Part shown: positions 6,872-61,711 of the stretch, piece by piece
Position numbering within the stretch: position 1 is the stretch's first letter
How the letters are laid out: every line of letters starts with the position of its first letter
From: an uncultured Acidobacteriota bacterium
Lineage (GTDB): Bacteria; Acidobacteriota; Vicinamibacteria; Vicinamibacterales; 2-12-FULL-66-21
Length of the DNA: 64,000 nt
Reading direction: 5' to 3'
NCBI GenBank assembly: GCA_963787175.1
Contig: CAWBCA010000017.1
Coordinates: forward strand, 120,515-184,514
Program-made: the position numbers and the translations under genes
The notes under the pieces: model-generated
What the model was told of the DNA's origin: nothing
Databases searched by the model: none
Seen by the model: the letters and a program-made list of their open reading frames with translations, nothing else

Positions 6872-6913
6872 CCGGACACCATCGGCACCACGACCAGCTG
6901 AACGACTGGGGAC

Positions 6914-7244: not shown

Positions 7245-7247
7245 CTC

Positions 7248-7276: not shown

Positions 7277-7282
7277 CGATCC

Positions 7283-9311: not shown

Positions 9312-9328
9312 GCCGGCGGGCCTCCCTG

Positions 9329-10345: not shown

Positions 10346-10351
10346 CGCGCC

Positions 10352-10845: not shown

Positions 10846-10963
10846 ACCGCCGGTGCACGCAGGCGCGTGCGCTCCACCCGACCGTGCGTCGCTCGTCCCA
10901 TCGACCGGGTGGCATGGGACCATGTGGGCCGTGCATGGCGATCGGCTCTGCCCTGCGCGCTAT

Positions 10964-12964: not shown

Positions 12965-12986
12965 GGGCAATTCGGGACGTCACACT

Positions 12987-14919: not shown

Positions 14920-14953
14920 CGGCCTTGAGTATAGCGGGTGGGGAATGGAGATC

Positions 14954-15051
14954 GAGGGGCTCGATCGGGGGAGGCTCGATGGGGATCCGGGATCCGGGGG
15001 CTCGGCGTTCGGCGCTCGGCGTTCGGGGTTCGATTCGGGCGACTCGGCAAG
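14954..15051. repeat. heptad-repeat array upstream of the second ABC gene
   Basis: GGGATCC x2 (14982-14995), then GGGGGCT CGGCGTT CGGCGCT CGGCGTT CGGGGTT CGATTCG. It is preceded by ATCGAGGGGCTCG / ATCGGGGGAGGCTCG. Shares words and word order with 12987-13063. Confidence 0.8.
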
Positions 15052-15149
15052 CGGGCTGCCGTTTGTTCGTGTTATCCTTGCGTGCCTTTCCCAGCAGGCT
15101 CCGCTGCCCTCTCCGGGCATGACTACAACCAATCGGGGCGAGAGACGTC

Positions 15150-15968
15150 ATGCGCATGACAGCTGCAGCGGGAGTTGTGTTTTCACTGGTAGTCTTTGCC
15201 TTTCCCTCGTCGGTTTCGGCTCAGTCCGACACACAGACCCCATCCGACCGGGCGACCGGCGAGACCTACCACGTGGAGATCGGCGGAATGTTCTGGCGGC
15301 CGGGGCCGGAGGTCACGATTACCAGTGAGTCGCTCGGGATCATCGGGTCGACGATCGACTTCGTCACCGACCTCGGCATCGAGAAGCAGTCGTTCAAACA
15401 GCTCAAGATCGTGCTGCGCCCCAGCACCAGGACGAAGTTCCGCTTCGAGTACACCCCGATCAGCTACACAACGGAGGCGATCCTCAGGCGTCCGCTGATC
15501 TTCAACGGCATCAGCTATCCGATTGCCCTGCCGGTCAACACCGAGCTCGAGTGGAAGGCGTACCGCTTCGGCTTCGAGTTCGACTTCGTGTACGGCAATC
15601 GCGGCTTCGTCGGAGTGCTGCTCGAGGCGAAGTACACCCATGTCGAGGCGACGCTCTCGAACGTGATCGACACCGAGTTCGTGCGCGCGCGGGCGCCGAT
15701 TCCCGCGATCGGATTCATCGGACGCGGCTACCCGGTCTCCAACATCTCGATCACCGGCGAGTTCAGCTTCTTCAAGCTGCCGGAGAGCATCAACGAAGAC
15801 TACCGCGCGAAGTACTACGACTTCGATCTGTATGGGACGCTCAACTTCACCGACAACTTCGGCGCGCAGTTCGGCTATCGCTCCTTCGACGTCTTCTATC
15901 ACGTCGATTCAGACGAGGGCGAACTGCAGCTGAAGGGGCTGTACTTCGGGGGCGTCGTCAGGTTCTAA
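15150..15968 (+). CDS. outer-membrane beta-barrel protein
   Basis: Signal peptide MRMTAAAGVVFSLVVFAFPSSVSAQ. Alternating-hydrophobic strands (KFRFEYTPISY, YRFGFEFDFVY, GVLLEAKYTHVEA). C-terminal YFGGVVRF. Intact ORF. Confidence 0.75.
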   Translation: MRMTAAAGVVFSLVVFAFPSSVSAQSDTQTPSDRATGETYHVEIGGMFWRPGPEVTITSESLGIIGSTIDFVTDLGIEKQSFKQLKIVLRPSTRTKFRFEYTPISYTTEAILRRPLIFNGISYPIALPVNTELEWKAYRFGFEFDFVYGNRGFVGVLLEAKYTHVEATLSNVIDTEFVRARAPIPAIGFIGRGYPVSNISITGEFSFFKLPESINEDYRAKYYDFDLYGTLNFTDNFGAQFGYRSFDVFYHVDSDEGELQLKGLYFGGVVRF

Positions 15969-15973
15969 GGACA

Positions 15974-16009
15974 CTTTGCGTCTCGGCTTTGGGCTTTGGC
16001 GCTTCCCCC
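15974..16009. repeat. heptad module CTTTGCG TCTCGGC TTTGGGC TTTGGCG CTTCCCC between convergent genes
   Basis: Read directly. It parallels CCTTGCG TTTGGGC CTCTGGG at 13085-13105 and CTCTGCC TTTGGGC TTTCGGC at 51529-51549. Confidence 0.6.
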
Positions 16010-18759
16010 CTACTCCACCCTCACCCACGCGCCCAAGAAGCGCGTGTCCCTGCTGGCCGCGTCAACGGCGCTCGGGCGGAACCCGGACGACACCTCGAAG
16101 GTCACGAGCATCGCCCCCCAGGCCGACCGCGGCGGGCCCGGGGGCAGCTCCACGCGACGCTCCTCGCCGGGCGTGAGGCGCAGCGTGTCGATCCACCCGC
16201 CGGCCCGGACCGTCACCACGTTGTCCACCGGCGCGTTCCTCAGCTCCAGCACAATCGACCCGCGCTCGTGTTCCGGCTGCAGCACGACGGCGGATTCGCG
16301 TCCACCTCCCAGCCAGAAGCCGCCTGGCTCCGGGAAGCTGCGATCGTCCATGAAGAAAGCCGTCGCCCGGCCATACCGCACCGCGCGCCTCGCCATTCCG
16401 CTCGATGCCTTCTGATCGCGCGAGCGGATCGACACCGGCCGCACGAACAACGCGCGCACCTGGGCGCGTGCGCCCTCGTCGCCCCGGACGATGAGGACGC
16501 GAAGGTCCACGGGAACACGAACCGGCACCCCGCGATCGAACGACTCCACCGGCTCGGTGACGAGCGCGAACTGGTCGCGGCCGACCCCGGCCCCCGCCAT
16601 CAACCAGCCGCTCCCGCCGGCACGCTCGGCCCGCAGCCGGTACTCGCCCGCGGGCACCTGGGGCAGCGTGAAGAGGGCGCGGTCCTCCCTCGGGAACGCG
16701 GCCGATCGCGGCGCCGGCGTGAGTCGAAGCTCCATGCGCGGCACGAGGTCGCCGGACTCCAGCCGCCGCCGTCCGGTCAAATCGACGGCGACGACGTGCT
16801 CGACGTCACCCAGGAGACGCAGCAGGTCCATCGCGGCCTGCGGAGGCGTACGTCCGTCCACCTGCTCGAGCCTCCAGACAACGCTGATCGCAGCCATCAG
16901 CGCGATCGCCATGACTGCGCCCGTCACGGTGGCGGCGGTCGCGATCGATCGGTTCGGGCCACGCCGGTCGATCGCGCGGACTACCACGCACGCGAGCCCG
17001 ACGACGACGATCCACACCGCGATCTCCGTGAAGAACAGCGGTCCCGGCTGCTGGCGCTGGAGGCGCGCGAAGAACGAGGGAAGCCCGTGCGCGAGGTCTG
17101 CCGTGCGGCTTGCCCACTCCGTCCAGAGCGCATGAACGTTTCCACGGTCGAAGTATGCAAGTCGACCACGCCCGACGACGACCACCAGCAGGAAAGGCAG
17201 GCGGTGAGTGCCAGCGCTCCTGACAGGGCGATGCGGAGGCTGCGCTCGCGGATCGCCGCCCACGTGACAGCGGCGGGAATGGCCAGCGCCGGCAGCAGCG
17301 GCACGAGGAATCGCGCCGGGGCGCTGAACCCTCCCCACCACATCGCGAAGTGCGTCACGGTCAGGACGTACGGCACGGCGATGAACACGAGTTGGGCCGC
17401 CAGCCGCCGTCCCGGCCCGGTATGCGCTGCCAGCAGAAGCACACCGATCGGCGCCGCCACCAGCACCGGAGCGTTGGTGAACAAGCCGTACATCTGGTCG
17501 AAGAACAGGCCGCCCAGCCCGCCGGCAATGTAGGAAGGGGATCCCAGGTCGGAGCCCCTGTAGGGAATCGACGGATCCGGAGCGCCGTAGACGGCCACGA
17601 AGAACCCGATCCACGCGAGCGCACTCGCGCTCGGCACCGCCAGGAACGCCGATGCCTTCGCGGCGGCGTTCCGGGTCCGGGCGAGATCCAGTACGACCAG
17701 CGCGCCCAGGCAGCCGGCCAGCAGGGCGAAGCGCGTGTGCAGCCATGGCAGGAGCGCCAGCGCGGCGCCGTGGAACAGCCACGGCCACGCGGACTCCGCC
17801 CCGCTGGCCTGCTCCTCGCGGGATCGGATGAGCGCCCACACGCCCGTGAGCACGAGGAGGCCGCCCGGGCCGTCGGGGTAGACGGTGAACGTGTTGACCA
17901 GCAGGGTCGGCGAGCAGACCACCGCCGCCCAGCCGAACCAGGCGGCGTCGGTCCGGCCCGTGACCCGTCGCGCGAGCTCCCACGCAAGACCCGCCGCGAC
18001 GGCCGAGAGGATCAGGAGCAGGACCAGCACGCCCCGGTATCCGGCGACCGCAAAGGCAGGCGCCACGAGCGCGGGCAGCCCCGGGGCATGAATCGAGTAG
18101 ATCGCGCCGTCCTGCCCACGCCGCAGGTAGTCGGGCTTCGACAGATCCCCTGGGTAGTACGATCGGTAGTCGCCCTGCGCGTGGTTGTTCTCGATCTTCA
18201 GGTCGCCATCGAGCAGCAGGCTCTGGGTGATGATCAGGTAGTGCGGCTCGTCGCCGCCCGGCCGCGACGGCGAGACCCCCCAGGCGGCTGCCGCGAATAT
18301 CGCGAGCGCCGCCAGGCCGGCCCGCAGCGCCGGCGGGTATGCCGGCACCACCCCGCGCGGCCGGCGCACCGTGGCCAGCATCGCGCCGGCAACCACGACC
18401 CACAGCCCGAGCACCAGCGGTCCCGACCAGAGCAGGAAGGCGGGCGGAACGGGACCCGGCAGCCAGGGAAGGAGCGTCAGCAGCAGCAGGAGCAGCGGCT
18501 GGCGAGCAGCGCCGAAGTGCAGGAGACCCGCCGCCGCCGCCGCGGCAACGCCCACCAGTGAGAGCGCCTCGAAGCTGACCGGCAGCAAGGCGAGCCGTGC
18601 CGCGCCGCCATCACCGTAGGCGATGGCGCCCTGCGAGAGCCACGCCGCCAGGGCCGTGAACAGAACCGCCAGTGCGGAGCCGAAGCCCCTGCTCGCGCGC
18701 CGCGCGGCGGGCTCGGCGCTGCGCGACCGGCCGATCGGCTGTGGTTGAATGACCGGCAT
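16010..18759 (-). CDS. large polytopic membrane protein, GT-C / PMT_2-ArnT-like glycosyltransferase candidate, one apparent frameshift
   Basis: Many TM helices in ORF 16981..18789. Periplasmic-loop motif SRPGGDEPHYLIITQSLLLDGDLKIENNHAQGDY. Soluble C-terminal part is in ORF 16010..18403. Frame change near 17150. The function call rests on motif and topology only. Confidence 0.55.
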
Positions 18760-18897
18760 TCTACATGCTGGGGGGGAAACCGCGTGCACACCGGGAGTCT
18801 CGCGCAGGTACGGGACACGCCCGCGCCCGCCGTCGACAACAACCGCGTGCTCCAGTCGCGAACATGCCGCGGCAGGACGGCCAGCCCCGGGAGCATG

Positions 18898-21182
18898 CTA
18901 GGAAGAGCGCGTTTTCCTGGGCGCAGGTGCCTTCTTCGTGGATCGGGGTTTCGCCGCGGGCCGCTTCGCGGAGGGCGTTTTCGAGGGTGCAGCCTTTGGA
19001 GCCGGGACCGCGGCGACGGTGGAACGCGGCGCCGGGCGTTCGGTTCCCCCGCCAACCGGAATGGCCCGGCCGCCCCCTTGCCGTACAGCATCCTGTAGTC
19101 CTCGGCGGTGCCCAGGATCCGCTTGACGTAGTTCTGGGTTTCCGGAAACGGGATGTCGTCGATGAACTCGTCCTGATCGAGGCCCGGCCGCTCCGCGCGC
19201 CATCGCACGACGCGGCTCTCGCCGGCGTTGTAGCTGGCGAGCGCGTAGTGAGTGCCACCGAACTGCTCGACCAGCCGCGAGAAGTACACCGTTCCGAGCC
19301 GGATGTTGGTCTCCGGGTTCGTGAGCATCGGCGTGGCGAACCGCCGGATGCCGAGCGAGCGGGCAAGGCGTCGTCCGGTGGCGGGAACCACCTGCATGAG
19401 GCCCCATGCGTTCGCGGGCGAGCGAATTTTCGGGTCGAAGGTGGACTCCTGGGCAATCAGGGCTGCGACCAGGTACGGGTCGATACCTCGCGCGCTCGAG
19501 TGCTTGCGGATCAAATCCCAGTACGTCAGCGGAAAGATGACCTGGAGGATCTCCGTGGGGAGTTCCTGTCCGACGGCCGTGAGATGCTGCGGATAGGCGC
19601 GCCGCATCAGGGTGATTGCCCGCCGCAGCTCACCCTTCCGGTGGTACACCCAGGCAACGGTGGCGTCCACCTGCGTCGACGGTCCCCACGCGCGCTGCGC
19701 GAACCGCAGCTCGTTCAGCGCGTCGTCGTACAGCCCCGCTGCGAGCAGGAGGCGAATCGACTGCGCCGTCGGAACGGACGGCGTCGTGCGCTGAAGGACA
19801 GGGCGATTCACGGGCACGGCGTCGGGACGCGCCGCGTCCCGCTGCGGCGAGAGCCGGACGCTGGCCAGGCGGCCGTAATACGAGTTGCCGTAGTCGGCCT
19901 GCACCAGGCGCAGGCGCTCGTGGGCCTGGGGTCCGTTGCCGATCCGGCCGTGCGCACGCGCGGCCCAGTAGAGGAAGGACGGGCGGTAGTCGGACCGGCT
20001 GAACGCGGCCGCAGCGGTCTCGAAGACCCCGACAGTGCCGGCGTAGTCGCCGTTCCGGTATTTGTGCCAGCCGTACTTCCACGCCGCACGCTCCGCCCGC
20101 GCGCCGGCCGGGAACTTCTCGTAGAGCTCCCGGAAGGACTCCGCCGCAAGGTCGTCCTCGTTGGTCAGGATGTAGTAGGTGCCAAGGTTGTTCAGCGCTT
20201 CCTCGGACCAGGAGCTCTCGGGGAACTCGTCCACCAGTGCGCGGGTCGCCGCGATGAACTCGGCGTCCTGCCCGAGCTCCCGCTGCGCGCTCAGCCCGAA
20301 GAATCGCGCTTCGGCCTTGCGTGAGGCGGTGTCCAGGTAGGGGCGCACGCCGTCCAGCGCCGCTGCGTACCGCTTGAGGAAAAAATCGCACTCGGCGATC
20401 CGCAGGTCGACCAGCTCGCGATCGTCGCCAGAGACCTGCCGCTGGATAGCGGCAAAGGCGGCGCGCGCCTCCGGATACCGCCGTGCGCCGTAGAGGATCT
20501 GTGCGCGACCGATGTCGGCCTTGTAGCTCACGCGCACGTATGTGTCGCGCAGCGCGTCGAGCTGCGTCTCCGCCGCGATCGCCGCCTCGGTCTGGGGAAA
20601 CTCGTAATAGACCCGCAAGTACGCTTCGGCTGCTTTCTTCCGGTCCTTCGCCGCCAGCGACGCGCGCGCCAGGCGTGAAAGGATGTCTTCGTTGATCGTC
20701 GCCTTGGAGCCGGCCAGGTCCTCGTAGATGGCGATCGCCGCGCCGTAATCGCCCATCGCTTCTGCGGCTTCCGCTTCACCAAGTGGCGTGCCGACCGACA
20801 GGTAGCCCTGCGGCTTTCGCTGCCGGAGGGCGTGAAACAGGGCGCGCGCCTCGGCCGAGCGCGACAGGCGCAGCTGGGAGGCCGCCGTGTAGTAGGCCGC
20901 GTAATCCTGCAAATCGGTCGCGGCAAGGGAAGGATGGCTGACGAGCGGCAGGGCGGCTCCGTAGTCGCCCGCCTCGAACGCCGCCGCGCCGTCGATGAGC
21001 GGCTTGACGACCTTCAGCGCGCGCGGGCTCACGTCGTCGGCGGTGGGTACCAGCCACAGCTCGCTGGCGCTGCCGGGAAGCGCCTGGTGCGCCGTTGGCG
21101 AGAGCTGTGCGGAGATCGGGCGCCCCGCCCCGCTCCACCCGAGGATGAGGGTGACCGTGGCGATCAGGACCGGCTTGCGCAT
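18898..21182 (-). CDS. soluble lytic murein transglycosylase (Slt-like, superhelical N-domain), one apparent frameshift near the 3' end
   Basis: Signal peptide MRKPVLIATVTLILGWSGAG. TPR-like N-terminal region. Catalytic domain YLVAALIAQESTFDPKIRSPANAWGLMQVVPATG and YALASYNAGESRV. Lys/Pro/Ala-rich tail ...AAKPRSTKKAPAPRKTRSS is in ORF 18898..19407. Confidence 0.85.
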
Positions 21183-21186
21183 GTCG

Positions 21187-22059
21187 TCAGGCCGGAACAC
21201 CGAGCGCGCCCGGGTCGCCTTCTGCGAGCGTCTGCACGAGCTCCTGCTGGAACAGCGTTGCGCGATTGTCCACCGAAGCCGGTACCCGTTCCTGGTACAC
21301 CCGGCGGGCGCGGTCAATCTCCGGACGGAGCCGCTCGAGGAGGTCCCGATGCTCGCGGCCAGCGCGGACGGCCAACTCGTGGTACAGCTCGATCTCCGAC
21401 ACCAGCAGCCGGGCGTAACGGCGCGCGCTCACATCGTGATCGCTATCCGGGGGAGGGGCCGGACGGGCGGAGCCCGTCGCCTCCAGCAGCCGCAACGCCG
21501 TCAGCCGCGACAGGCACGCCGAGGCGTGCGCGCCGAGGATGAGCATCGCTTCACGCAGGCTCGCCCCGCCCCTCTCGCCGGGACCCGGCTCCGCGTGGAG
21601 AACTGCCACGGCGCGGTCTCCCACGACGATGGGGATCGTCAGCGTGTCCGCGCCGGAGTGCGGTGCAGCCCGCGACCCTGGCAAGGCCCGCAGCCCTGGC
21701 AGAGCCGCCACCAGCGCCTCGGGTAGCCCCTTGGCCTCGCCTTCGGCGAAGCCGGCCGACCGCCAGCACTGCAGCGTGCCGCGCCCCGACGGCTGACCGT
21801 CGACCACGAGCAGAATCGCCGTGCGCGGCGTTTCCTCCGCCGCAGCGTCCGCCAGCGCGTCGAGCGCGGCGGTCAGCGACCGGGCGTCGCTCACCCTACG
21901 CAGCGATGCGGCCAGCCGATGGAGGACTGCATGGGCGGAGTCCACGCTCTCGCGCGCAGGACCGCTGTCGTTTTCTGCAGTCCCGAGCGAGGCGGTCTGG
22001 CTGTCGAGCGCGGCCCGGGTGCGCAGCGTGTCGGAGGCAACCTGCAGCTCGCTCGACAT
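21187..22059 (-). CDS. GAF-like domain protein, hypothetical
   Basis: Intact 290-aa ORF. Its stop lies 5 nt upstream of the slt start. C-terminal motif ARRYARLLVSEIELYHELAVRAGREHRDLLERLRPEIDRARRVYQERV. Confidence 0.6.
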   Translation of the reverse strand: MSSELQVASDTLRTRAALDSQTASLGTAENDSGPARESVDSAHAVLHRLAASLRRVSDARSLTAALDALADAAAEETPRTAILLVVDGQPSGRGTLQCWRSAGFAEGEAKGLPEALVAALPGLRALPGSRAAPHSGADTLTIPIVVGDRAVAVLHAEPGPGERGGASLREAMLILGAHASACLSRLTALRLLEATGSARPAPPPDSDHDVSARRYARLLVSEIELYHELAVRAGREHRDLLERLRPEIDRARRVYQERVPASVDNRATLFQQELVQTLAEGDPGALGVPA

Positions 22060-47885: not shown

Positions 47886-48800
47886 CTACTGCTGCGCGGC
47901 GCAATACGCGTCTCTGGATGCCGTGCTGCTCAGCGGTGGCGCGTACAAGGCCGACGCTTTGAGCGTCAGGGCAATTGCTGCCGCGGATTGCTCGATCTCC
48001 TCCGCCACGAGCTGCCGGAAAAAAGGGGTCGGAGCCGTTACCAGGCGTACCGCGTTGTACCAGGCGCGCTCGCGCCAGCTGACGACGAGCAGAAGGAACG
48101 CGTCTGCGTCCAGTGTGGTGCCAGGCACGTCGGAATTCCTGATGGACGGGTCGAAACGCTGAGCCGCCTCGTCGAGTGCGGGACCGTGTGCTACCCGGTA
48201 CAGGATCTGGTTCACCTTGTCGTGATCAGGCTTGCGACTGGAGCCGTCCGGGTGCCTGAGTCCCAGTCGCTCGAGGACGAAGGGCAAGTCGCGGTTGATG
48301 TGGGCACTCATCCCGAGGAGCGTGTTTCCGCTTCCGGCGACTTCCCGGCGCTCGGCCGCCTCGAACGCAATGGCCCACGCCGGCGGGACTGGCCCGGAGC
48401 TGGCGTGCCACGCATCATAGGCGGTGAAGTAGTCGTCTGCGAACAACGCGTCCTCGCGGTTGACGTAGGGCGTGTCGGCGAAGAATGTCGGATCCGTGGC
48501 GACTGTGCGTCGGTACTCCTCAGTGGTTCGGAGGTACAGCAGCGCAAATACCGCGTCGTGATCGCAGCTCTGGGCCAGGTCGCGGAGCCGGTTGGTCATG
48601 TCGGTTACCACACCGTCCACGCATTGGAGGGTGCCCTTTACGCAGGGGGTGCGGGACGACCACAGCGGATCGGCAGCGCTCTGGGCCGTGTACACCGTGG
48701 AGTCCGCCCTGATGACGACCGGCGCCATGCAGATTGATGCCACGAGAACGGACGCGATTGGCGCCATCCGCCACGACCGGTGTGTCGCACATGTCATCAT
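47886..48800 (-). CDS. DUF5995-like hypothetical protein
   Basis: Intact ORF. LLGMSAHINRDLPFVL motif. The start overlaps the stop of the upstream GGDEF-EAL gene by 4 nt. Confidence 0.55.
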   Translation of the reverse strand: MMTCATHRSWRMAPIASVLVASICMAPVVIRADSTVYTAQSAADPLWSSRTPCVKGTLQCVDGVVTDMTNRLRDLAQSCDHDAVFALLYLRTTEEYRRTVATDPTFFADTPYVNREDALFADDYFTAYDAWHASSGPVPPAWAIAFEAAERREVAGSGNTLLGMSAHINRDLPFVLERLGLRHPDGSSRKPDHDKVNQILYRVAHGPALDEAAQRFDPSIRNSDVPGTTLDADAFLLLVVSWRERAWYNAVRLVTAPTPFFRQLVAEEIEQSAAAIALTLKASALYAPPLSSTASRDAYCAAQQ

Positions 48801-51008
48801 GTTGTCCTCCTCCCCGAGCCGCCTGGATCAGGCGCTCCATCGTGGTTCCGGCTCTCCCGCCGGCCGTGCCATGCGAGAAAGCCGGCACTGGACATCGGCT
48901 TCGCGAAATGAAAGCCCTGCGCCTGGTCGCACTCGAGATTTGTCAGCAACTCGCTGATCAGCTGACTTTCAACCCCTTCCGCCACGATGTCCAGGCTGAA
49001 GTTGTGCCCGAGCTCGATCGCCGCACGCACGATGGTGGCATCCCGTCCGTCGGTCGCCATGTCGCGGACGAACGACCGGTCGATCTTGATCGCCTGGACC
49101 TGCAGATTCTTGAGATACGCGAGGGAGGAGTAGCCTGTGCCGAAATCGTCGAGTGAGAACGCGATGCCAAGGCCATGCAGGAGGCCGATCGTCGTCATCG
49201 CACCCTCCGGGTCCTGCATGACGGCGCTCTCGGTGATTTCGAGCTCGAGCTGGCGCTCGTGAGTGCCGGACGCACGCAACGCCTGATCGATTACGTGGGG
49301 CAACTCGGCGTCGTGCAGCAGCGGCGCCGAGAGATTGACCGCCACCGGGATCTTCAGCCCCTGCGCCTGCCACGAACGGGAATCCTCGAGGGCGTGGCGG
49401 ATGACCCACGATGTGAGGGGCTTCACCAGGCCGGTGCTCTCGGCGACCGGGATGAACTTGCTTGGCGGAATGAGGCCGCGACTCGGGTGTTGCCAGCGCA
49501 CGAGACACTCGGCTCCCAGCGTGTCGCCGGTTCGCAGGCTGACCCGTGGCTGATAGTGCAGCACCAACTCGTCGGAGTGGATGGCGCGCTGCAATTCGGC
49601 GATGAACGTCAGAGACTCCAGCTGCTCCTGATCCATTGCTGGGTCGTACACGGCGATGCGGCCACCGAACCGTTTCGCGCGATACATCGCGATATCGGCT
49701 CTCCGCAGCAGGCTGGCCGGATCCGATCCGTGGTTGGGATGAACGGCAATCCCGACGCTGGCATTCAGCTTCAGCGGTACATGGTCGACCCGCAGCTCGT
49801 CCGCGAGCGTGGCCAGTGCCTTCCTGGTGATCTGCTCAGCCTCATCCACGTCCTTGAGGCCTGGCATGAGCAGCGCAAACTCGTCGCCGCCCAGCCGGGC
49901 GAGCGTGTCGCTCTCGCGGATCGAGGACCCAATCTGCGCCGCGACGTGACGCAGGACGCGGTCCCCTACCTCGTGCCCCAAGGTGTCGTTGACGTCCTTG
50001 AAACGGTCGAGGTCGAACAGCACAACGCCGACGAGATAGCCGTAACGGCGGGCGCCGGCCAGTGCCTGCTCGAACCTGTCCCACAACAGCGCGCGATTCG
50101 GCAGGCCGGTGAGTGGATCTTCCAGTGCCTGCCGCCGGATCCTGTCCTCGGTGTGTGCGCGGGTGATGGCGATGCTGGCGAGTCTGATACACCGTTCGAT
50201 GATCTTCGGCACGCGCGTGCCGAGCGGGAAAGACTCGTCCCTGGACAGCACGAACCAGCCCAGGTCGCTGTCGGTCAGGTTCGATCGAATCGGATGCTCG
50301 AGTTGCGTGAGATTCCGCGAACCGGCGTGCCGCTGCGGCGCGGACAACTGGTCCAGCGTCGGCGACAGGGTGTGCTCGACGGTGCCGTCGGGATTCGCGT
50401 GCACCAGCATCCAGGATGCGCGGAAGTCCTGCCCGGCCGCGAGATGGTCCGCTCCACCACGGCCGACCCTCCCGGTGCTGCTCGAGTCCGGCCGGAGTGG
50501 CAGACGCCACGACTCGCGCCGGGGCGCCGCTGTGGCGGGCCAGCAACCCGGCGATCGAGCCGAGGATGTGCGGCAGGGGTGCAGCCTGTGCGATGAGCTC
50601 GAGGATTGCCGTTTGCTCGGCGAGCAGTTCCTGGGCTTCGCGACGCGCGGTGACGTCGAACATCGTGCCGGCGTTTCCGACCATCTGACCGGACTCGGCG
50701 TAGCGAACACTCGCGCGGAGTTCGAGCCAACAGAACCCTCCATCAGCCATCCGATAGCGGCCTTCGTGATGGCAATAGGTCGCGCGGCCCGATACGACGG
50801 CGGTGAAGAGGTCGATGGTTCGCTGTCGTTCGTCTGGATGCACGTACTCCATGAAATTCCTGCCGAGGCTGTCCTTCACGGGAAAGCCGGTCACCCGTGT
50901 CCATGCCTGGTTGAGGTAGGTCCAGTTACCCTCGGGATCCGTCTGGAAGACAATCTCGTTCAGGCTGTCCAGCAGGTCGGCGGGATGGAGCGGCAGGTTG
51001 GTCTGCAT
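48797..51008 (-). CDS. PAS - GAF-like - GGDEF - EAL signalling protein, one apparent frameshift
   Basis: PAS segment NEIVFQTDPEGNWTYLNQAWTRVTGF. GGDEF segment DPLTGLPNRALL...RLGGDEFALLMPG. EAL segment LHYQPRV, EITESAVM, DDFGTGYSSLAYL, KIDRSFV, AEGVES. Frame change near 50480. Confidence 0.88.
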
Positions 51009-51763: not shown

Positions 51764-53992
51764 ATGCTTGCCACGATCGGCCACTACCGCTTGCTGTCGA
51801 AGCTCGGCGAAGGAGGAATGGGGGTGGTCTATGCCGCCGCCGATGAGCGACTGCACCGCCAGGTCGCCATCAAGACGGTGCGCGAGACCAGCCGGGATCC
51901 GCAGTCGCGGGAGCGCCTCTGGCGCGAGGCGCGGGCGGCCGCCAGCGTGTCTCACCCGAACGTCTGCCAGCTGTACGACGTCGGCGAGGAAAACGGGGAG
52001 CTCTTCATCGCGATGGAGCTGCTCGAGGGCGAGTCGCTCGGCACGCGGCTCGCCCGCGGGCCCATTCCGCTGGCCGAGAGCGGCGACATCACGCTCTCGA
52101 TGCTCTCCGCACTCGATGCGATCCACGCGCGCGGGCTCGTGCACCGCGACTTGAAACCGTCGAACATCTTTCTTACCGCGCACGGCGTGAAGCTGCTCGA
52201 CTTCGGCCTGGCCCGCGCCGTCGAGGAGGCCGGCGACCAGACTGGCGCCGGCATCACGATGGCCGGAACCGTCATGGGAACCCCACACTACATGTCGCCC
52301 GAGCAGATCACCGGCGATCCGCTGGACGGGCGATCCGATCTCTTCGCGGTCGGGGGCATCCTCTTCGAGGTCCTGGTAGGCGATCCGCCGTTCCCGGGGA
52401 AAACGACCGCTCAGGTCGTCCACGGCGTGATCTACGAGCAGCTCCCATCGCTGGGCGGCTCGCCTGCTCTGGCGGCCATCGATCGGGTCATTCATCGGGC
52501 CACGGCCAAGAGCCGGCCGACCGTTATCACGAGGCCGCCGCGATGGCACAGGACATTCGTGCGGCGCTGCGGCTGGCAGACTCCGGCGAAACCCCCACGG
52601 CCCGCAAGATGATGCGGCTCGTCGTGCTGCCGTTCCGGATGCTCCGGCCGGACCCCGAGGTCGACTTCCTCTCGTTCAGTCTCTCTGACGCGATCACCGC
52701 CTCGCTCGGCAGCCTCGAGTCGCTGGTGGTGTGCTCGAGCCTCGCCGCCGCCCGGTTCAACGCCGGTGCGCCCGACCTCAGTGCCCTCGCCACCGAGCTG
52801 GACGTCGATGCGGCGGTCACCGGCACCTTGCTCCGTGCGGGCCCGCAGGTGCGCGTGGCCGCGCAGCTCGTCGAGACGCGAGGCGGCCGGCTGCTCTGGT
52901 CCCAGACGGCGCAAGTGACCCTCAACGACGTCTTTCAGCTGCAGGACGATCTCACCCGGCAGATCGTCGAGTCGCTCTCGCTGCCGCTCTCCGCCCGCGA
53001 GCAGCGCCTGCTCTCGCATGACGCGCCGGCGAACGCCCGGTCCTACGAGTATTACCTGCGCGCGAACGAGCTGCGCCTCGGACCCGACGAGCTGGACGAT
53101 CGCGCGCGATCTCTACCAGCAGGCGGTCCAGCAGGATCCGACGTATGCGCCCGCGTGGGCGCGGCTCGCGCAGCTGCACCGCCGGATCGGCAAGCTTGGC
53201 GGGGGCGGCAGCGAGGACCTGGTGCGCGCCGAAGCCGCGCTGCAGCGCGCCCTCGAGTTGAATCCGGACCTGCCGCTGGCTCACAACCTGGCTGCGCAGA
53301 TGGACATCGATCGCGGACGCGCCCGCGATGCCATGACCAGGCTTCTCCGACAGGCAAGCCGCCGGAGCACCGATCCGGAGGTGTTCGCCGGACTCGTCTA
53401 CACCTGCCGATACTGCGGCCTGCTCGGCCCGTCTCTACGGGCAGATGCGCGGGCGCGCCGACTCGACCCCGCCGTCAAGACATCGGTCGTCCATACGTTG
53501 TGGATGTTGCGCGACTACGAGGAGGTGGTGTCGGGACGGCATGAGGGAGCGATTGTCGTGGCCTCCTCCCTGGTGGCGCTCGGCCGGGTGCCGGCAGCCC
53601 TGGAGTTCCTCGCCGGGGCGGAACAGAAAGTGCCCCCGATGGTTCGGCGAATCGTCGGCGCCGTGCGGGCACTGCTGGAAGACCGGCCGGCCGACGCAAT
53701 CGCCGCGATTCAGGCCATCGTGTCATCCGGTTTCCGCGATGCCGAAGGCCTTTACTATCTCGCACGGCAACTGGCCTATGCCGGGGCCCCCGAGGAGTGC
53801 GTCGCGGTCCTGAAGCGTGCCACAGGTGCGGGCTTCTTCTGCTATCCGGTGCTCGCGTCCGACGAGTGGCTCGATTCGGCACGCCACCTCCCGGAGTTCA
53901 CCGCCGTGCTCGAGGGTGCGAAGCAGGAGCACGATCTCGCGGTGGCGGCCTTTGCTGCGGCAGGCGGCGAACAGGTCCTTGGCATCGATTGA
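51764..53992 (+). CDS. Ser/Thr protein kinase - TolB-N-like - TPR (paralog of 27763..30058), two apparent frameshifts
   Basis: LGEGGMGVVYAA, VAIKTV, LVHRDLKPSNIFL, LLDFGLAR, GTPHYMSPEQ. Then MRLVVLPFRMLRPDPEVDFLSFSLSDAITASL...AVTGTLLRAGPQVRVAAQLVE. TPR part is in ORF 53018..53992. Confidence 0.88.
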
Positions 53993-54013
53993 GTCGCTCG
54001 CCGATCCATCCCA

Positions 54014-54629
54014 TCAAGCCCCGTCTTCGAGGACTCTCTGCACTGCCCTGACGAATACCCCGAACCGCCGGGTCGGGTGCCGCCGCCCGGTCCTGGTCAG
54101 CGACTCGAACATCGTCTGGCGGACGGCGCGTGACAGTTCGAGTTGGACCCCAGCCTTCGTCGTGCCTCGATTGCACAGGTTGGTTGGCTCGAGCCCCTGC
54201 AGTTTCCTGCTGGGGTGCTTTCGCACGTCGAAACCGTGTCGAGCCAGTTCGCCCCGGATCGCGGTGCCGACGATCGCTGTCGAGGCCACCTATGAACACG
54301 CCTTCGCCGTCTTCCGTGGAGTGTTCCCCGTGAAGAGTTACGACGACGTCGGTCTGACCGATCAGCGTAAGACACATCGGCTCGTCGAAGCGAGTGCTGG
54401 TGATATGCAAGCCGCCGTTGCCTGATGATTTCAGCCCTTCGAGCGTGTAGAAGGAGAACGCTCCCGCCCCGATCGCATCGGCAATCTCGGAGGTTCCCGG
54501 TACTATGCCGCCGCCATGAGGCGCGATCAGCGCGAAGTCGCGTCTTGCCCGCCGCACTGATATTGCATAGTCGACGCCGGCCTGCTCGTTGCGCGCGAGG
54601 GCGGCGAAGTTCGGATACTTGTCGGCCAT
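54014..54629 (-). CDS. DUF867 / poly-gamma-glutamate hydrolase-like protein, one apparent frameshift
   Basis: MADKYPNFAALARNEQAGVDYAISVR...ALIAPHGGGIVPGTSEIA...VVVTLHGEH. The C-terminal part is in ORF 54014..54289. Confidence 0.65.
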
Positions 54630-54636: not shown

Positions 54637-56872
54637 TCAGCACGTCCACCGTGCGAGAATGCGGTCGAGATCGGAACGATTCAGCGGCTTGGTCATGTAG
54701 TCGCTCATGCCGGCGTCCAGGCACCGCTCGCGGTCGCCGGCCATCGCGTGGGCCGTCATCGCCACGATGTAGCAGGGCGGCAGATGGTGCTCGACTTCGA
54801 GCTGTCGAATCGCCCTCGTCGCCTCGAAGCCGTCCATGCCCGGCATCTGCACGTCCATGAAGATCAGTTCCAGCGCGCGGCTGAGGGCGGCGGCTGCGTA
54901 GGCGTCCACGGCCAGCTTGCCGTTGCCGACGGCAACAGGCCGCAGGCCGTGCTTGTGAAGCAGCCGCACCATGATCGTCGCATTCACGATGTTGTCTTCG
55001 GCGATCAACACCGGAGGTCCGGCGGCAGGTCCAGCGTGGGCCGAACAACCACGCTCGGCCCACGGAGCCGGGGCTGGTCGACGGGCCGGTGCCTCACCGG
55101 GATCGTGAACGAGAACGTCGTGCCGCGGCCCACCACTGACGTCACCTGCAGCGTGCCGCCCATCAGCTCGACGAGCGCGCGCGAGACGGTCAGGCCGAGG
55201 CCGGTTCCGCCGAAAGCGCGTGGTGGACGTATCGGCCTGCGAGAACGGCTGGAAGATGGCGTCCAGCTTGCCCGCGGCGATGCCGATGCCGGAGTCGGTC
55301 ACGACGCAGTAGAGCGCTGTCCGCGCGCCGGCCTCGCCGGCGTTCTCGGAAGGTCACCGTGATCCGCCCGCGCTGCGGCGTGAACTTCACGGCGTTGCCA
55401 ATGATGTTGAGCAGGACCTGGCCCCAGCCTGGTCTCGTCCGCAACAATCCGGCCGGACAGCCGCTCGTCCAATCATGCAGACATAGATCAGGTCTTTCTC
55501 GGCGATCTTCGGTGGAGGAGCTTGCCGAGGCGCCGGGTGAAGTCGCAGGAACTCGAAGGCACGCGGGTCGAGCACGACCCGGCCCGCCTCGATCTTCGAG
55601 AAATCCAGGATGTCGTTGATGACGACGAGCAGGCTCCGGCCGGACTGGATGATCGTTTCCAGGTCTTCGCGCTGCTCCGTCGTCAGGGCGGTCTCGCTCA
55701 TCAGGTCTGCCGTGGCGATGATGCCGTTCATCGGCGTCCGGATCTCATGGCTCATGTTGGCCAGGAACTCGCCCTTGATCCGGGCGGCGGCCTCCACTTC
55801 GAGAGCCCGCTGCTCCGCCAGTTCTTCAGCCCTCTTGCGCTGGCTGATGTCCGTCCGAATCGCGATGAACTGCGACGGCGTGCCGTCGTCCCCGAGAAAC
55901 GGCACGATCGTCGTGGCCACCCAGTAGATGCTCCCGTCCTTGGCGCGGTTGCGCAGCTCGCCCGACCAGATCGCTCCACCTCCGATCGTCGTCCAGAGGT
56001 CCCTCATGAAGGCCTTCGAGTGGTAGCCCGAGTTGAGGATGCGGTGATCCTGCCCGAGGAGCTCCTCCCGGGAGTATTTTGAAATGGCGCAGAACTTGTC
56101 GTTGGTGTAAGTGATCCTGCCCCGCGGATCGGTAACCGCGACGATGCTGTGCGAATCGAGTGCGAGCTGCCTGTCGGCGAGGTCCTTGAGTGCGCCGCGC
56201 AGCGCCGCCTCAGTGGCACGGCGTGCCTGAATCTCATCGCGCAGGGACGTGTTGGCCCTGATCAGATCCGTGGAGCGCTCCTCGACCAGCCGCTCGAGCT
56301 CGTCCTTCGACCGGAGCAGCACCGCCTCGGCCTGCTTCGCGTCGGTGATGTCGTACCCCAGCCCCTGCAGGAACACCGGATGCCCGGCATCGTCGCGGAC
56401 CAGCGTGATCTCGCCGCGAATCCAGACCACGTTCCCGGCCTTCGCGAGGAAGCGGTACTCGCCCTTGAAGTAGTCCCCGGTCGATACCGTGCGCGCGAAC
56501 TCATGGTTCCAGCGACGCTGATCCTCGGGATGGAGGCGCTGGTACCAGAGGATGGGATCCTCCACCCACTCCTTCGCGGTGTAGCCCAGCACGCGCTCGA
56601 TATGCGGGTTGACGTAGATCTCACTGCGGTCGCTCCCGAGCGAGGCAAGAAACGTGATCACCGGCAGTTTCTCGACCAGCGTCTGGTAGCGGAGCTCCGC
56701 CGCCCGCATGCGGTCCTGCACCGTGGCGGCTCGTCGCGGGGCGCCGGATCGACGGGATCCGGCGGCGCCGGTGGCGGGCAAGCCGGGCAGCGTAGGCCTG
56801 CGCCAGGAGGAGGAGCGAATCGAACGCCGGCAGCTGTGCGGGCAGGAGCTCGTCAGCCGCGTCGGCGCTCAT
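54637..56872 (-). CDS. hybrid sensor histidine kinase (PAS-PAS-HisKA-HATPase-REC), many apparent frameshifts
   Basis: PAS modules [13 protein letters not shown]... and [25 protein letters not shown]-box [17 protein letters not shown]-box [14 protein letters not shown]-box DSGIGI. Receiver [11 protein letters not shown]...[14 protein letters not shown]...TAHAMAGD...MSDYMTKP. A candidate ATG at 56872 overlaps the hhyL stop (ATGA). Confidence 0.85.
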
Positions 56873-58721
56873 GGCAGGTTCCGCGCCGCTTCCTCGAGCT
56901 CGGCCTCACGGGGCCTCCGGCTGCGGCTGGGCCCCGAACGATCGGCGAGTGGCGGATCGTCGATCACCTTGCCGTCGCCCAGGTACATGTGGACGCCGCA
57001 CGGCAGGCAGGGATCGAAGCTGCGCACCGTGCGCATGATGTCGATGCCCTTGAACGTGTCGGGGCCGTTCTCCTCGAAGATGGGCGTGTTCTGACCGCGT
57101 CCTCGTAGGGCCCGGGCACGCCGAACGAGTCCCGCGGGCTGGCGTTCCAGGGCGTCGGCGGATAGGGATGGTAGTTGGCGATCTTGCCGCCGCGAATCAC
57201 GACGTGATGCGACAGCACGCCGCGCACCGCCTCGTGGAAGCCGCAGCCGATGGCCTCGTCCGGCACCTTGAACTGGTGCCATGTCGTCAGGCGGCCGGCG
57301 TGCACCTCGGCCATCGCCTGCTCGAGGAAGTACAGCGCCGCGGCCGCCGCATAGGCCTGGAAGTAGGTGCGGGCGCGGTCGCGCTCGAGCGTGTTGCTCC
57401 AGTCGCGGGATCTTCCACTCGAACTCCGTCTCGCCGTGGTTGGCGGTCTTCGGCAGGCGGATCTTGACGCTCGTGCCCGGTCGCCTTGACGTAGCCGCCG
57501 AGGTTCACCGATCCCGGCCAGCGCCGTCACCCAGAACCGGGCGAGCGGGCCGCCGCCGGTGTCGAGCGCGAGATGCTGGCCGCTGCGCGTGTCGAACCAG
57601 CGCGGCGACATGACCCAGGTGTATTTGTCCGCGAAGTCGCGCTTCTGCGGCTTCGGCAGCGTCGTCTGGTTCCACGGATGCCGCTGATCGACCGGGTTGC
57701 CGAGCGGGTCGGCCTTGACGAACATCTCGCTGCGCCTGCCAGTCGTCGTAGAACGAGCTGCCGAGCAGGATGCGGATGCCCAGGTTGATCTCGATCAGGT
57801 CGGTGGTGATCAGTTCGCCGTCCACCACGATGCCGGGCGTGACGTACATCGCGCGGCCCCACTCGGGCATCGACTCGTAGCTGAAATCGCAGACATCGGG
57901 GTTCTTGAACGAGCCCCAGCAGCCGAGCAGCACCCGCCGCCGGCCGACTTCCTCGTAGCCGGGCAGCGCCTCGTAGAAGAAGTCGAACAGATCGTCGTGC
58001 AGCGGCACGCATCGCTTCATGAAGTCGATGTACTTCAGCAGCCGCACGAGGTAGTCGTTGAAGAGCTGCACGCTCGGCGACGGTGCCGACGCCGCCCGGG
58101 TAGAGCGTCGAGGGGTGCACGTGCCGGCCTTCCATCAGGCAGAACATCTCGCGCGCCAGCCGGCTCATCTGCAGCGCTTCGAGATAGAAGGTGCCCGGTG
58201 AACGGGTTCAGCGCCCGCATGATGTCGGCGATGGTGCGGTAGCCGTGCAGCTGCCGCGTGCGGCGCCTCGGTCGTTTCGGCCTTCGCCAGCACGCCCGGG
58301 TTCGTCTCCCGCACCATCTGCTCGCAGAAGTCGACGCCGACCAGGTTGTCCTGGAACAGGTTGTGGTCGAACATGTACTCGGCGGCCTCGCCGAGGTTGA
58401 TGATCCACTCGGCCAGGGGCGGCGGCTTGACGCCGAAGGCCATGTTCTGCGCGTAGACGGCGCAGGTCGCGTGGTTGTCGCCGCAGATGCCGCAGATCCG
58501 GCTGGTGATGAAGTGCGCGTCGCGCGGGTCCTTGCCCTGCATGAACACGCTGTAGCCGCGGAAGATCGACGACGTGCTGTGGCACTCGACCACGCGCCGG
58601 TTCGCGAAGTCGATCTTGGTGTGAATGCCGAGGCTGCCGACGATCCGGGTGATCGGATCCCACGACATCTCGACGAGTTGCGGGCTCGGGGCGCCATCGC
58701 GTCCGACGCTGCGCGGGTCAT
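56869..58721 (-). CDS. hhyL: [NiFe]-hydrogenase large subunit, group 1h (group 5, high-affinity type), many apparent frameshifts
   Basis: LVEMSWDPITRIVGSLGIHTKIDF. STSSIFRGYSVFMQGKDPRDAHFITSRICGICGDNHATCAVYAQN (L1 motif). RSFDPCLPCGVHMY (L2 motif). The pieces are spread over ORFs 58165..59106, 58208..58663, 57505..58071, 56964..57725 and 56869..57282. Confidence 0.88.
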
Positions 58722-58733
58722 GGCTGGCTGGGC

Positions 58734-59724
58734 TTACCTCGCTCCGGCGCGCGCAGGCTCCTTGTTCATCGAAGCCTGGGTGAAGGACCGCAGCGACCGG
58801 ATCGTGCTGCCATAGATCTGGATCGCGTGCGTCGAAGGTTCGCCCCCGGCGGCTCGTCCAGGAACGGCATGAACTTGTCGGGGAAGCCGGGCATCGTGCA
58901 GCCGATGCAGACGCCGCCGACATTCGGGCAGCCGCCGATGCCGCCCATCCAGCCGCGCTTCCCGACGTTGCACTGCACGACCGGCCCCCAGCAGCCCAGC
59001 TTGCACGATGCACTCGCTGCTGCCCGTAGCGCGGTCGCGAAGTCGGCCTGCTCGTAGTGGCCGCCGCGGTCGCAGCCTTCGTGCACAGTGTGCGGCGAAG
59101 AGCCACGTCGGCCGCCCAGCTCGTCCAGAGGGATCATCGGCGCGGTGCCGGCCGCCTGACGCAGGAGGTAGAGCAGCACTTCCATGAAGTTGTCGGGCTG
59201 CACCGGGCAGCCGGGCACGTTGACGATCGGCACCCGCTGCCAGCGACTTCCAGTCCAGCCCCAGGTAGTCCGCCAGCCCCATGCAGCCGGTCGGATTGCC
59301 CGCCATGGCGTGGATGCCGCCGTAGGCTGCGCAGGTCCCGGCGGCCACCACGGCCCACGCCTTCGGGGCCAGGCGGTCGATCCAGTCGCAGGTCGTGATC
59401 GGCTGCCCGGTGGCCGGGTCGATGCCGAACGCCGCCCAGAACCCCTCGCTTTGTTCTCTCGTTGGGGATCGATCCCTCCACGACCAGGATGAACGGATCG
59501 AGGCGGCCCGCCGCGGCGTCATGGCAGTAGCGCATGAACGCCTCGCCGTTCTCGTTCGCGAGCACCGGGTTGTGAAAGTGGACCGTCGGGATGCCCGGGA
59601 TGATGCCCCGAACGAGGTCCTCGATGCTGGGTTGCGTGGCGGCGGTGATGGCGATCGTGTCGCCGTCGCAGCCGAGCCCGGCCGTGATCCAGAGGATGTG
59701 GACTTCCGCGAAGGGGGTCTCCAT
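58734..59724 (-). CDS. hhyS: [NiFe]-hydrogenase small subunit, group 1h type, no TAT signal, apparent frameshifts
   Basis: [38 protein letters not shown], with no RRxF signal. [91 protein letters not shown]. Confidence 0.85.
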
Positions 59725-60200
59725 CAGCAGCTCCTCGGTAATGTTTCACAATGTCCGAGAGCGGCGCGGTCAGCCGGACCGTATTCCATCCCGGTCAGGA
59801 CACCGCGGGTCGGATTGTGGAAGAAGCCGTCGGGCTGCGTGAGGGAGTGGGTACGAGTGTGGGTCCGCCGCCGGTACGAGCCCATGGTAAGCGAGCAGGC
59901 GCCGTTTGGTGCGGAAACGGGTCACATGTGACGCCGCGAGAGCGCACCTCGCGATTGATCCGCCGCACCGGCGTATTGTCCGTCGTTGCCCCTCGCCAGC
60001 GCAAGGGGAGCCGCAATCCCGCGAATGAGCCTGGCATCCTTCCTGACCGCGGTCTCGAGCGGCCGTTCGAATCGATACGATCCCGGCCGTGACCGGACAG
60101 GCTCCGGCCCCCCAGCCCGCATCCACACCTGTGCGGCGACGACGTGCAGTCGGCCCGATCGGAGTAGTATGTCGACTGATCGCCGTCCGGAAGCACTGCG

Positions 60201-61711
60201 ATGGACGCCTTCATCAGTTACGCCTCAGCGAACGCCAGCCGCGCCGCGCGCGTCGAGCGCGCGCTTGTCGCGGCCGGGCGCACTGTCTGGCGCGATCGCT
60301 CGAAGATCCGCCTGGGTGTCCTCCTGCGGCGGCAGCTCCAGGAAGCCATTTCCGGCTCCCGCGCGCTCGTGCTCCTGTGGTCCAGGCAGGCGGCGCAATC
60401 CCGATGGGTCGCCGCCGAGATCCTCACGGCCTTTCATGTCAGGAGGTTCATCGTCCCGTGCGCGCTCGATGACACGCCGCTGCCACAGTTCCTGTCGGCG
60501 ACCGTTCATCTGAATCTTTCCCGTGCCACGAGTGGCGCGCTGGATGCCTTGCAGCGAGCGCTGGTCGACGCGCCAGCCGGTGCGAACGCCATCCCGCCCG
60601 CCGAGAGCAGCCGCAGCGCGGAGCAGCGTCGCGCCATCGATGCCATCAATCGCCTTCAGCACGCGGAGCTCGACCACCTGCAGCGCCGTGCCCTCCAGGC
60701 TGCGCGGCGCGCCCACGCCAGGACCGACCGCGAGATGCGGCGCGCCCGGAGGAAGTGGCGGCTGGATCCCATCGTCCTGAACCTTGCCGGGTACCATTGC
60801 AAGAACGCATACATGCTGAAGCACTGGGAGGCGTTGCAGGCCGGGCGCGGACCCGTGGATCAGACTGCTCGGAAGGGCCGAACGCCTGTTCTTCGAGACC
60901 CTCTTCGTGGATCCGACGGACCCGTACGGGCTGGATGGCCTGGGCAGCGTGCTGAGACTCGAGCGCGAGTTCGACGCGGCGGAGTTCTTCTTTCTCGAGG
61001 CGATCGAGCAGGCCGACAGGAGGGGTATCGTCTACCTGGAGCCGCGGCAGAATCTCGAAAGCGTCCGGCGCGCTCGAGGCGAGGCGCCACGGGAGGGCCC
61101 ACCGGCAGCCAGCCGCGCAACGCCGCCCCGCGACGCCGCCCCCCGTCAGCCGGGCCTCCCGCTCGACACGATAGCGGACGACCTCCGAACCGGCGAAAGG
61201 GCCCTCCGGTCGGGCAAGTGGCAAGGCGCGCTCGCCGTGTTCGATCGCGTGCTCCAGACTGCGCCCTCTTCAGGCGATGGCGCACGGGTTTCGAGCCGAG
61301 GCGTTGCTTCGGCTGGGCCGGTTCGACGACGCCCTCGAGGCGTACGACGACACTCTGGCGATCCAGCCGGGAAACGTCGCGGCGCGATCTGCCCGGGGCG
61401 CCATCCTGGTGGGTCTCGGTCGGACCGACGAAGGACTTCAGGACATCGACAGCGTGGTTGCCGCGCACCCCAGGCATCCTGAAGCTCTCTACAACAAGGC
61501 CTGCGCGCATAGCATCAAGCAGGAGGGGGGCGCAGCGCTGGTCGCCCTGGGAGAAGCCATCGCAGCCCATCCGCCACATCGCGCGACCGCGGCCTCGGAT
61601 CCGCATCTCGGATACGTGCGGGACCATCCGGCGCACGGACGGGCATTTCGCGCCCTGATGAAGCGCGGAAAGGCCTCCGCCGGCAAACCCGGGCCAGTCG
61701 CACGTCCCTGA
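60201..61711 (+). CDS. TIR domain - TPR repeat protein, apparent frameshifts
   Basis: MDAFISYASANASRAARVERALVAAGRTVWRD...ALVLLWSRQAAQSRWVAAEILTA (TIR, conserved Glu present). TPR-like C-terminal part is in ORFs 60907..61482 and 61277..61711 (AEALLRLGRFDDALEAYDDTLAIQPGNVAA...EALYNKACAH). Confidence 0.78.

Follow-up and report, generated by a model that had tools for sequence, protein, structure and literature searches.

The DNA considered here is a 64-kb stretch of contig CAWBCA010000017.1 from an uncultured member of the Acidobacteriota, referred to below as the window. On its minus strand it carries the genes for the small (hhyS) and large (hhyL) subunits of a [NiFe]-hydrogenase, followed directly by the gene for a hybrid histidine kinase with PAS domains. 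A first-pass annotation had recognized the two hydrogenase genes as a group 1h pair with no maturation genes nearby, and was silent on the kinase, which proves to belong to a conserved unit with them. The three genes, which run from 59724 to 54637, are each split into many short open reading frames (ORFs) in different frames, and the proteins were restored by frameshift-aware alignment of the DNA to the orthologues in L001, the closest long contig. Nine one-base insertions or deletions (indels) had to be mended in hhyS, eleven in hhyL (nine from the alignment, and one near each end that was read from three frames) and ten in the kinase gene. On comparison with related loci, the three genes very probably make up a functional, kinase-linked group 1h module whose frameshifts are artefactual. 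The features of the window are collected in Table 1.

Table 1. Features of the window, with positions in the 64-kb stretch; the hydrogenase and kinase genes are given first and the other genes after them.
Feature	Position	Strand	Remarks
hhyS, group 1h [NiFe]-hydrogenase small subunit, kinase-linked lineage	58734-59724	minus	Frameshift-aware alignment, Pfam and tree
hhyS stop codon TAA	58734-58736	minus	
GLGCDGDT	59656-59679	minus	Proximal-cluster position of HhyS
hhyL, large subunit	56906-58721	minus	Start ATG at 58721, stop TGA 56906-56908; read from three frames
L1 signature TSRICGICGDNH	58471-58506	minus	N-terminal Ni-Fe ligands of HhyL
L2 signature SFDPCLPCGVH	56989-57021	minus	C-terminal Ni-Fe ligands of HhyL
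PAS hybrid histidine kinase	54637-56872	minus	743 amino acids when corrected
Kinase domains (residues)			PAS_3 85-170, PAS 240-345, HisKA 366-430, HATPase_c 478-591, REC 620-736; Pfam on corrected protein
PAS_3 domain of the kinase	56360-56620 (approximate)	minus	Common to all hydrogenase-associated kinases
Divergent intergenic region, hhyS to TIR gene	59725-60200		476 nt; presumed promoter region
TIR_2-domain gene, divergent from hhyS	60201-61711	plus	TIR_2 from Pfam; TPR part, recognized by eye, in a different frame (ORF 61277-61711)
Poly-gamma-glutamate hydrolase family gene	53898-54629	minus	
thrS	2-1937		3 indels
pheS	about 3860-4477		Scanned ORF covers profile positions 55-246 only
pheT	about 4261-6871		Consecutive parts of the B3_4 and tRNA_synthFbeta domains in different overlapping ORFs (Pfam)
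rny	about 7331-9466		RNase Y N-terminal domain spread over different overlapping ORFs (Pfam)

The corrected HhyS has about 329 residues, contains the Pfam domains Oxidored_q6 and NiFe_hyd_SSU_C, and is 85% identical to the HhyS of L001, with 276 of 332 residues identical in the frameshift-aware alignment. Its N-terminus, encoded by codons 59689-59724 of the minus strand, shows no twin-arginine (Tat) leader, and GLGCDGDT stands at the position of the proximal cluster, both as the first-pass annotation had read them. The aspartate of the GCDGD motif is reported to be a cluster ligand in the paper on the 5AA5 structure. The iron-sulfur ligand motifs for the three clusters are all conserved. The corrected HhyL has about 601 residues, and 524 of 595 are identical to those of P0002 in an alignment of the same kind. 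Both large-subunit signatures that had been reported are present and intact, the L1 signature TSRICGICGDNH being of the [ST]SRICGICGDNH type and the same in the HhyL clade of the window as in the canonical consensus. The original end of hhyL at 56869 has to be corrected, as that position ends an out-of-frame ORF and the true stop lies upstream of it on the coding strand. Past CGVH the protein retains a 26-residue C-terminal extension, MYLGDGKVIDIRHSPMFGAQPQPEAP, in which the M after HSP is the mended frameshift codon; the uncorrected frame gives IRHSPIVRG. The genes are closely spaced, with 12 nt between hhyS and hhyL and 33 nt between hhyL and the kinase gene, and GAGGAG is found 7-12 nt ahead of the hhyS ATG. 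A scan for promoters and terminators from 53.5 to 60.4 kb gave nothing exceeding the shuffled expectation.

The stitched HhyL matched 5AA5_C (HofG, of the actinobacterial-type hydrogenase of Ralstonia eutropha) over its full length with 1106 bits and approximately 80% identity; no other solved [NiFe] hydrogenase scored above 149 bits, and Huc, of group 2a, reached 111 bits. Its closest relatives among 5.8 billion database proteins are 89-90% identical and are annotated as hydrogenase large subunits, and among 204 HhyL sequences of the 1h type, compared by neighbour-joining, it takes a nested position and does not fall outside the group. NCBIfam gave no equivalog for the kinase or for either hydrogenase subunit, every score lying under the cut-off. 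Because of the bit scores and database relatives of HhyL and the Pfam domains of HhyS, the assignment of the hhyS-hhyL pair to group 1h is sound as a reading of its sequence, and the original identification is upheld. The pair shares with the canonical 1h enzymes (Hhy of Mycobacterium smegmatis, HofK/HofG of R. eutropha and the enzymes of Streptomyces and Acidobacteria) the L1 and L2 signatures, the Tat-less small subunit, GCDGD at the proximal cluster, the motifs of the three iron-sulfur clusters and the C-terminal extension. It differs from them in that hhyE, the genes for DUF5947 and DUF6084, the conserved ORFs, hupD and hypA-F are missing from the 64 kb, in the PAS_3 hybrid kinase that follows hhyL, and in that both its small subunit and its HhyL fall in separate clades.

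Genes so heavily interrupted might be decaying pseudogenes, with genuine frameshifts and with hydrogenase and kinase both on the way to being lost. Three features of the window are in keeping with this: the 30 one-base indels in 5.1 kb are denser (5.9 per kb) than those of thrS (1.5 per kb), some long ORFs elsewhere are intact, such as one of 983 amino acids at 18480-21428, and the maturation genes are absent. However, thrS, pheS, pheT and rny, which are essential and present in single copy, are frameshifted in the same window (Table 1). The annotated ThrRS product of the source, from a contig of 1,183,673 bp, is 100% identical to the window and has 515 residues, compared with about 654 in relatives, and the ATPase domain of an ABC transporter in the window ends at position 67 of 137 in its Pfam match. 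Because these essential genes are broken in the same way, the frameshifts of hhyS, hhyL and the kinase gene are shown to be errors of assembly and not decay of the hydrogenase. The character of the lesions also argues against decay: all are single-base, insertions outnumber deletions by about 2 : 1, none lies in a long homopolymer, and the repaired hhyS and hhyL contain no in-frame stop, no larger deletion and no damaged metal-binding motif. The inactivating lesions that the first-pass annotation had named as a possible objection are thus not found once the reading frame is restored. Divergence from L001 is mostly synonymous (dN/dS 0.16-0.27), and intact relatives are likewise devoid of local maturation genes in seven of ten cases (see below).

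The source appears to be a poorly polished, long-read metagenome-assembled genome (MAG), probably of the Vicinamibacterales, to which the named relatives of its ThrRS belong (76-82% identity). The uneven density of indels, with one indel-free stretch of 1.24 kb inside the kinase gene itself (55549-56787) and another in the 983-residue ORF, may, at a guess, reflect patchy polishing. Because of this unevenness, we leave a small share of the probability to real pseudogenization, which we regard as improbable. Two attempts to characterize the errors further were abandoned. GCAGC, considered as a motif of the methylation type, occurred at six indels where 2.85 were expected (p = 0.06, uncorrected), and no k-mer was significant. 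A hidden Markov model of GC3 phase, intended to count frameshifts without a reference, proved too noisy, giving 3.1 switches per kb for the window, 2.1 for L001, 1.2 for L023 and 2.8-4.2 for intact controls of lower G+C content. In practical terms, the gene models from this record are truncated throughout the window, and frameshift-ridden long-read MAGs of this kind will undercount or miscall the genes of kinase-linked hydrogenases.

In L001, the HhyL of which is 89% identical to that of the window, the order of genes is again hhyS-hhyL-kinase, the kinases share 587 of 742 residues (79%), and no hyp gene lies within 10 kb. Beyond the module there is no synteny, none of the 14 other L001 proteins matching the window. 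In the HhyL tree the window belongs to a 20-member clade (bootstrap 41/50) within a 28-member group, and a PAS_3 kinase was found in all ten loci of this group that were examined. It follows hhyL directly in the window, L001, L083, L084, L085 and L088, overlapping the hhyL stop by 4 bp in the last four, and lies one to four genes further downstream in L086, L089 and L068 and 3.4 kb away in L087. The flanking genes vary from locus to locus among the ten, and the carriers include Acidobacteriota (the window), Chthoniobacterales of the Verrucomicrobiota (L083 and L084, identified by GyrB) and a Chloroflexota MAG (L068). Since L001 shares the module only, and the module is found in Chthoniobacterales as well, its spread by horizontal transfer is suggested.

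That L001 has just these three genes in common with the window, that the module is met with in several phyla and that the assembly is of poor quality would also be expected of a chimera, in which an hhyS-hhyL-kinase segment of another organism had been joined into the contig. We consider this scarcely credible, given that the G+C content of 0.65-0.68 across 54-60 kb fits that of the rest of the window (0.62-0.73), that the composition is unbroken at the edges of the module, and that the compact module without maturation genes recurs on many independent contigs, including two of 321 kb and 678 kb.

One other member of the clade, P0010 (933 amino acids, on a JGI contig of 3858 bp), was considered as a fusion of hydrogenase and kinase and rejected: its HhyL runs on after CGVHMY into the conserved accessory ORF of 359 amino acids, which may be a real fusion, a frameshift or an artefact of gene calling.

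The absence of hyp, hupD-like and hha-type genes near the pair, already remarked upon in the first-pass annotation, extends to the whole window. With HypA-F, HupD, the NifU-like HhyE, DUF5947, DUF6084 and two conserved ORFs as tblastn queries, taken from the canonical cluster of Singulisphaera (L082) and the corresponding proteins of L086, no homologue of a maturation or accessory gene was detected anywhere in the window, the best match having E = 0.025; the search took in 56.9 kb to one side of the module and 4.3 kb to the other. In Pfam scans, 33 further ORFs of the window showed only unrelated functions. By comparison, among 67 sufficiently flanked canonical loci in species genomes of GTDB, hupD was present in 63, at least one hyp gene in 58 and at least three of five accessory genes in 64, which bears out the general statement that 1h enzymes are usually encoded in a larger cluster of structural and maturation genes; the content of the canonical cluster has been described by Eichorst et al. 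(2018). In the HhyL clade of the window, neither a maturation nor an accessory gene lies within 8-10 kb in seven of the ten examined loci. The missing maturation genes are therefore explained by the membership of the pair in a kinase-linked lineage that is usually without local ones and, judged from gene order, what looks like an orphaned pair is the normal state of a distinct three-gene unit, be it mobile or ancient. In this unit the kinase occupies the place that canonical clusters give to hhyE and to the genes of accessory and maturation proteins. Hhy activity in M. smegmatis has been shown to require HhyE, a NifU-like protein whose gene comes after the structural ones (Islam et al. 2019, PMC6883350).

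The association of the kinase with hydrogenases can be followed from either partner. Starting from the hydrogenase, PAS_3 domains of 39-76% identity adjoin hydrogenase genes in 60 of 89 loci. For the reverse test, an alignment of the PAS_3 domain was used to scan metagenome contigs, and the 80 closest relatives were taken, of which 67 had at least 700 nt of upstream sequence. In 62 of these 67, the gene immediately upstream on the same strand is hydrogenase-related (hypB in 25 cases, hhyS in 15, hhyL in 10, hupD in 10 and hypE in two), and three have no hydrogenase-related gene at all. Because 62 of the 67 relatives sit right behind such genes, the PAS_3 kinase family is, to go by this distribution, a dedicated companion of group 1h clusters.

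The small subunits, too, bear on this association. In a neighbour-joining tree the kinase-linked copies split from canonical HhyS with a bootstrap of 60/60, and among them the window and the remaining hhyS-hhyL-kinase loci are joined by extra copies from Acidobacteria; the window and five hhyS-hhyL-kinase loci group together at 51/60. The residues T23, A25, I45, F50, I79, N91 and S318 distinguish the kinase-linked HhyS from the canonical one. This small subunit is present in 48 of 52 GTDB loci with a PAS_3 kinase and in none of 27 without one (Fisher p = 3e-17). At residue 113 (in TTCDWIDRL, at about 59386-59388), the kinase-linked copies have Cys and the canonical ones mostly Asn.

In 45 of 80 GTDB loci, mostly of Acidobacteriota, a second hhyS that lacks its own hhyL is found some 2.7 kb upstream of the canonical copy, and in these 45 loci a PAS kinase directly follows it. 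In L002 (4933-8538), as at much the same position in 44 other GTDB loci, the extra hhyS is followed by a PAS_3-PAS-HisKA_3-HATPase kinase, a REC-GerE (NarL-type) regulator and the canonical hhySL, an arrangement that amounts to a full two-component system in a position to control the hydrogenase operon. The extra acidobacterial copies belong to the same small-subunit lineage as that of the window, with shared diagnostic residues, and the PAS_3 gene directly behind them is homologous (39-44% identical). The window unit differs in having its own hhyL, in a kinase with a HisKA core and a fused REC domain rather than HisKA_3 and a separate REC-GerE regulator, and in not standing beside a canonical hhy cluster; a scan of 13 neighbouring ORFs of the window revealed no separate gene for a response regulator. 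The primary source for the extra hhyS of P. methylaliphatogenes is said to be Greening and colleagues, in PNAS in 2015. An additional hhyS about 3.6 kb upstream has been listed for strain KBS 83, E. aggregans and P. methylaliphatogenes, with a remark in the supplement on a presumed two-component sensing system, and the extra gene is expressed in KBS 83 (Giguere et al. 2021, PMC8027828, SI-2).

A further variant is seen in L003, from a Gemmataceae MAG, where two hhyL and two hhyS occur in one locus (3747-20068). An hhyS-kinase pair lies on one strand and a lone hhyL, 83% identical to that of the window, on the other, and hypFCDE and a canonical hhySL cluster follow. Several genes of this locus are split, which suggests another long-read assembly.

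A mechanism for the unit can be outlined from these arrangements. In the living organism, intact hhyS and hhyL would form a three-gene operon with the PAS_3-PAS-HisKA-HATPase-REC hybrid kinase. HypA-F and the HupD endopeptidase would be supplied in trans from elsewhere in the genome and, because the C-terminal extension is retained, HhyL would still need processing by the endopeptidase. The enzyme would oxidize H2, and the N-terminal PAS_3 domain of the kinase would read the redox state of the small subunit's three iron-sulfur clusters, so that the availability or turnover of H2 would enter a phosphorelay, which would pass by way of the fused REC domain to Hpt and response-regulator partners with genes elsewhere. 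The mode of action would be like that of the HoxBC-HoxJ hydrogen sensor, built here from a hydrogenase of the high-affinity type. We regard the direct signalling step from hydrogenase to kinase, taken alone, as having slightly less than an even chance of being correct, and the statement as a whole, a functional module including direct H2 signalling, as evenly poised. That the hhyS-hhyL-PAS_3 kinase unit and the reduced acidobacterial form are together a dedicated H2 sensor derived from a 1h hydrogenase is a more tentative proposal, which we put forward with clear reserve.

The closest parallel is with the group 2b sensors (HoxBC-HoxJ of R. eutropha and HupUV-HupT; summarized in PMC12319191 and PMC13098282), which likewise consist of a Tat-less cytoplasmic [NiFe] hydrogenase genetically tied to a soluble PAS histidine kinase, with maturation genes shared with other hydrogenases. 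The enzyme of the window lies outside group 2b, its signatures and its nearest solved structure being those of group 1h; moreover, its hybrid kinase includes a REC domain, and its large subunit keeps the C-terminal extension. The known H2 sensors of group 2b (HoxC) have lost that extension.

The same genes may also be read as those of an ordinary energy-conserving uptake hydrogenase feeding the respiratory chain, with its hhyE, hyp and hupD genes elsewhere and with the kinase a regulator that senses another cue, such as O2, redox or energy state, controls the expression of the enzyme and makes no physical contact with it. HhyL is as conserved as its canonical counterparts and has kept the protease-dependent extension, the cluster motifs of HhyS are complete, and the sensing of O2 or redox state is common among PAS domains. 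In the Acidobacteria, the DNA-binding REC-GerE regulator stands after the kinase and just upstream of hhySL, as a regulator of that operon might. Furthermore, in 35 of the 67 metagenome loci the kinase ends an otherwise canonical cluster, after hypB or hupD, and at least in L023 the only small subunit in sight beside it is a canonical one; because of these loci, we accept that the kinase can occur without the special small subunit. We consider such an uptake enzyme a real possibility, to which we nevertheless give appreciably less than an even chance. It leaves unexplained why there should be a separate small-subunit lineage that is never found without the kinase, why the acidobacterial extra hhyS should lie beside a kinase with no partner hhyL, and why the kinase should be translationally coupled to hhyL in the usual position of hhyE. 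It is because a small subunit without a large one exists, because the special small subunit strictly co-occurs with the kinase, and because of this coupling in the hhyE position, that direct coupling of hydrogenase and kinase is favoured over mere regulation.

Several observations nevertheless weigh against a functional signalling module. The HhyL of the window differs from canonical HhyL by conservative substitutions only and is not visibly specialized, and its retained extension is not what a signalling role would lead one to expect. The PAS_3 domain has no conserved Cys or evident cofactor ligand beyond the generic PAS_3 pattern. To these are to be added the loci just mentioned, in which the kinase follows hypB or hupD or, in L023, accompanies a canonical small subunit, and the higher density of indels at the hydrogenase than at thrS, among which a real lesion could hide. 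Finally, the extra hhyS is not expressed in E. aggregans (Giguere et al. 2021, PMC8027828).

Of the genes around the module, the divergent neighbour upstream of hhyS is a TIR-TPR gene, as first annotated, its TIR_2 domain being recognized by Pfam and its TPR part by eye. TIR-TPR proteins are often linked to defence or signalling; no link between the TIR gene and the hydrogenase was seen in the relatives, the flanks of which differ. Downstream, a gene of the poly-gamma-glutamate hydrolase family starts 7 nt past the kinase stop on the same strand and may be co-transcribed with the module. Its Pfam match ends at position 134 of 191, so that it is probably frameshifted, and it is not conserved beside the module in relatives. 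The surroundings are rich in signalling genes, with a PAS-GGDEF-EAL protein encoded a few kb downstream of the module and, after it, a Ser/Thr protein kinase and then a TPR protein (48797-51008 on the minus strand and 51764-53992 on the plus strand); the PAS region of the PAS-GGDEF-EAL protein resembles the hydrogenase-linked kinase only weakly (25%).

Much of the atmospheric H2 taken up by soils is consumed by group 1h hydrogenases. A paper of 2026 on mycobacterial regulation frames the control of 1h expression outside the mycobacteria, and the sensing of trace H2, as unresolved. The hydrogenase described here is of a known kind; its kinase-linked three-gene form is new, and has been hinted at only in supplementary text. 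In the literature, our coverage of which is incomplete, we found no description of a complete hhyS-hhyL pair in an operon with this kinase, nor of the near-obligate tie of this kinase family to 1h clusters; on kinase-linked 1h hydrogenases we found only the group 2b sensors and the supplementary remark of Giguere et al.

Given how nearly obligate the tie of the PAS_3 histidine kinase to 1h gene clusters is, that remark becomes a defined and testable system, the reduced form of which is already at hand in the cultured carriers KBS 83, E. aggregans and P. methylaliphatogenes. Surveys of hhyL as a marker of atmospheric H2 oxidation include the kinase-linked clade, and the role of its members may be signalling rather than energy gain. 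If the unit and its reduced form are indeed a dedicated H2 sensor, H2 at trace or atmospheric levels would be sensed, and fed into a phosphorelay, by soil bacteria belonging to several phyla, and hydrogenase-based H2 sensing would have had a second, independent origin beside that of the group 2b HoxBC-HoxJ system.

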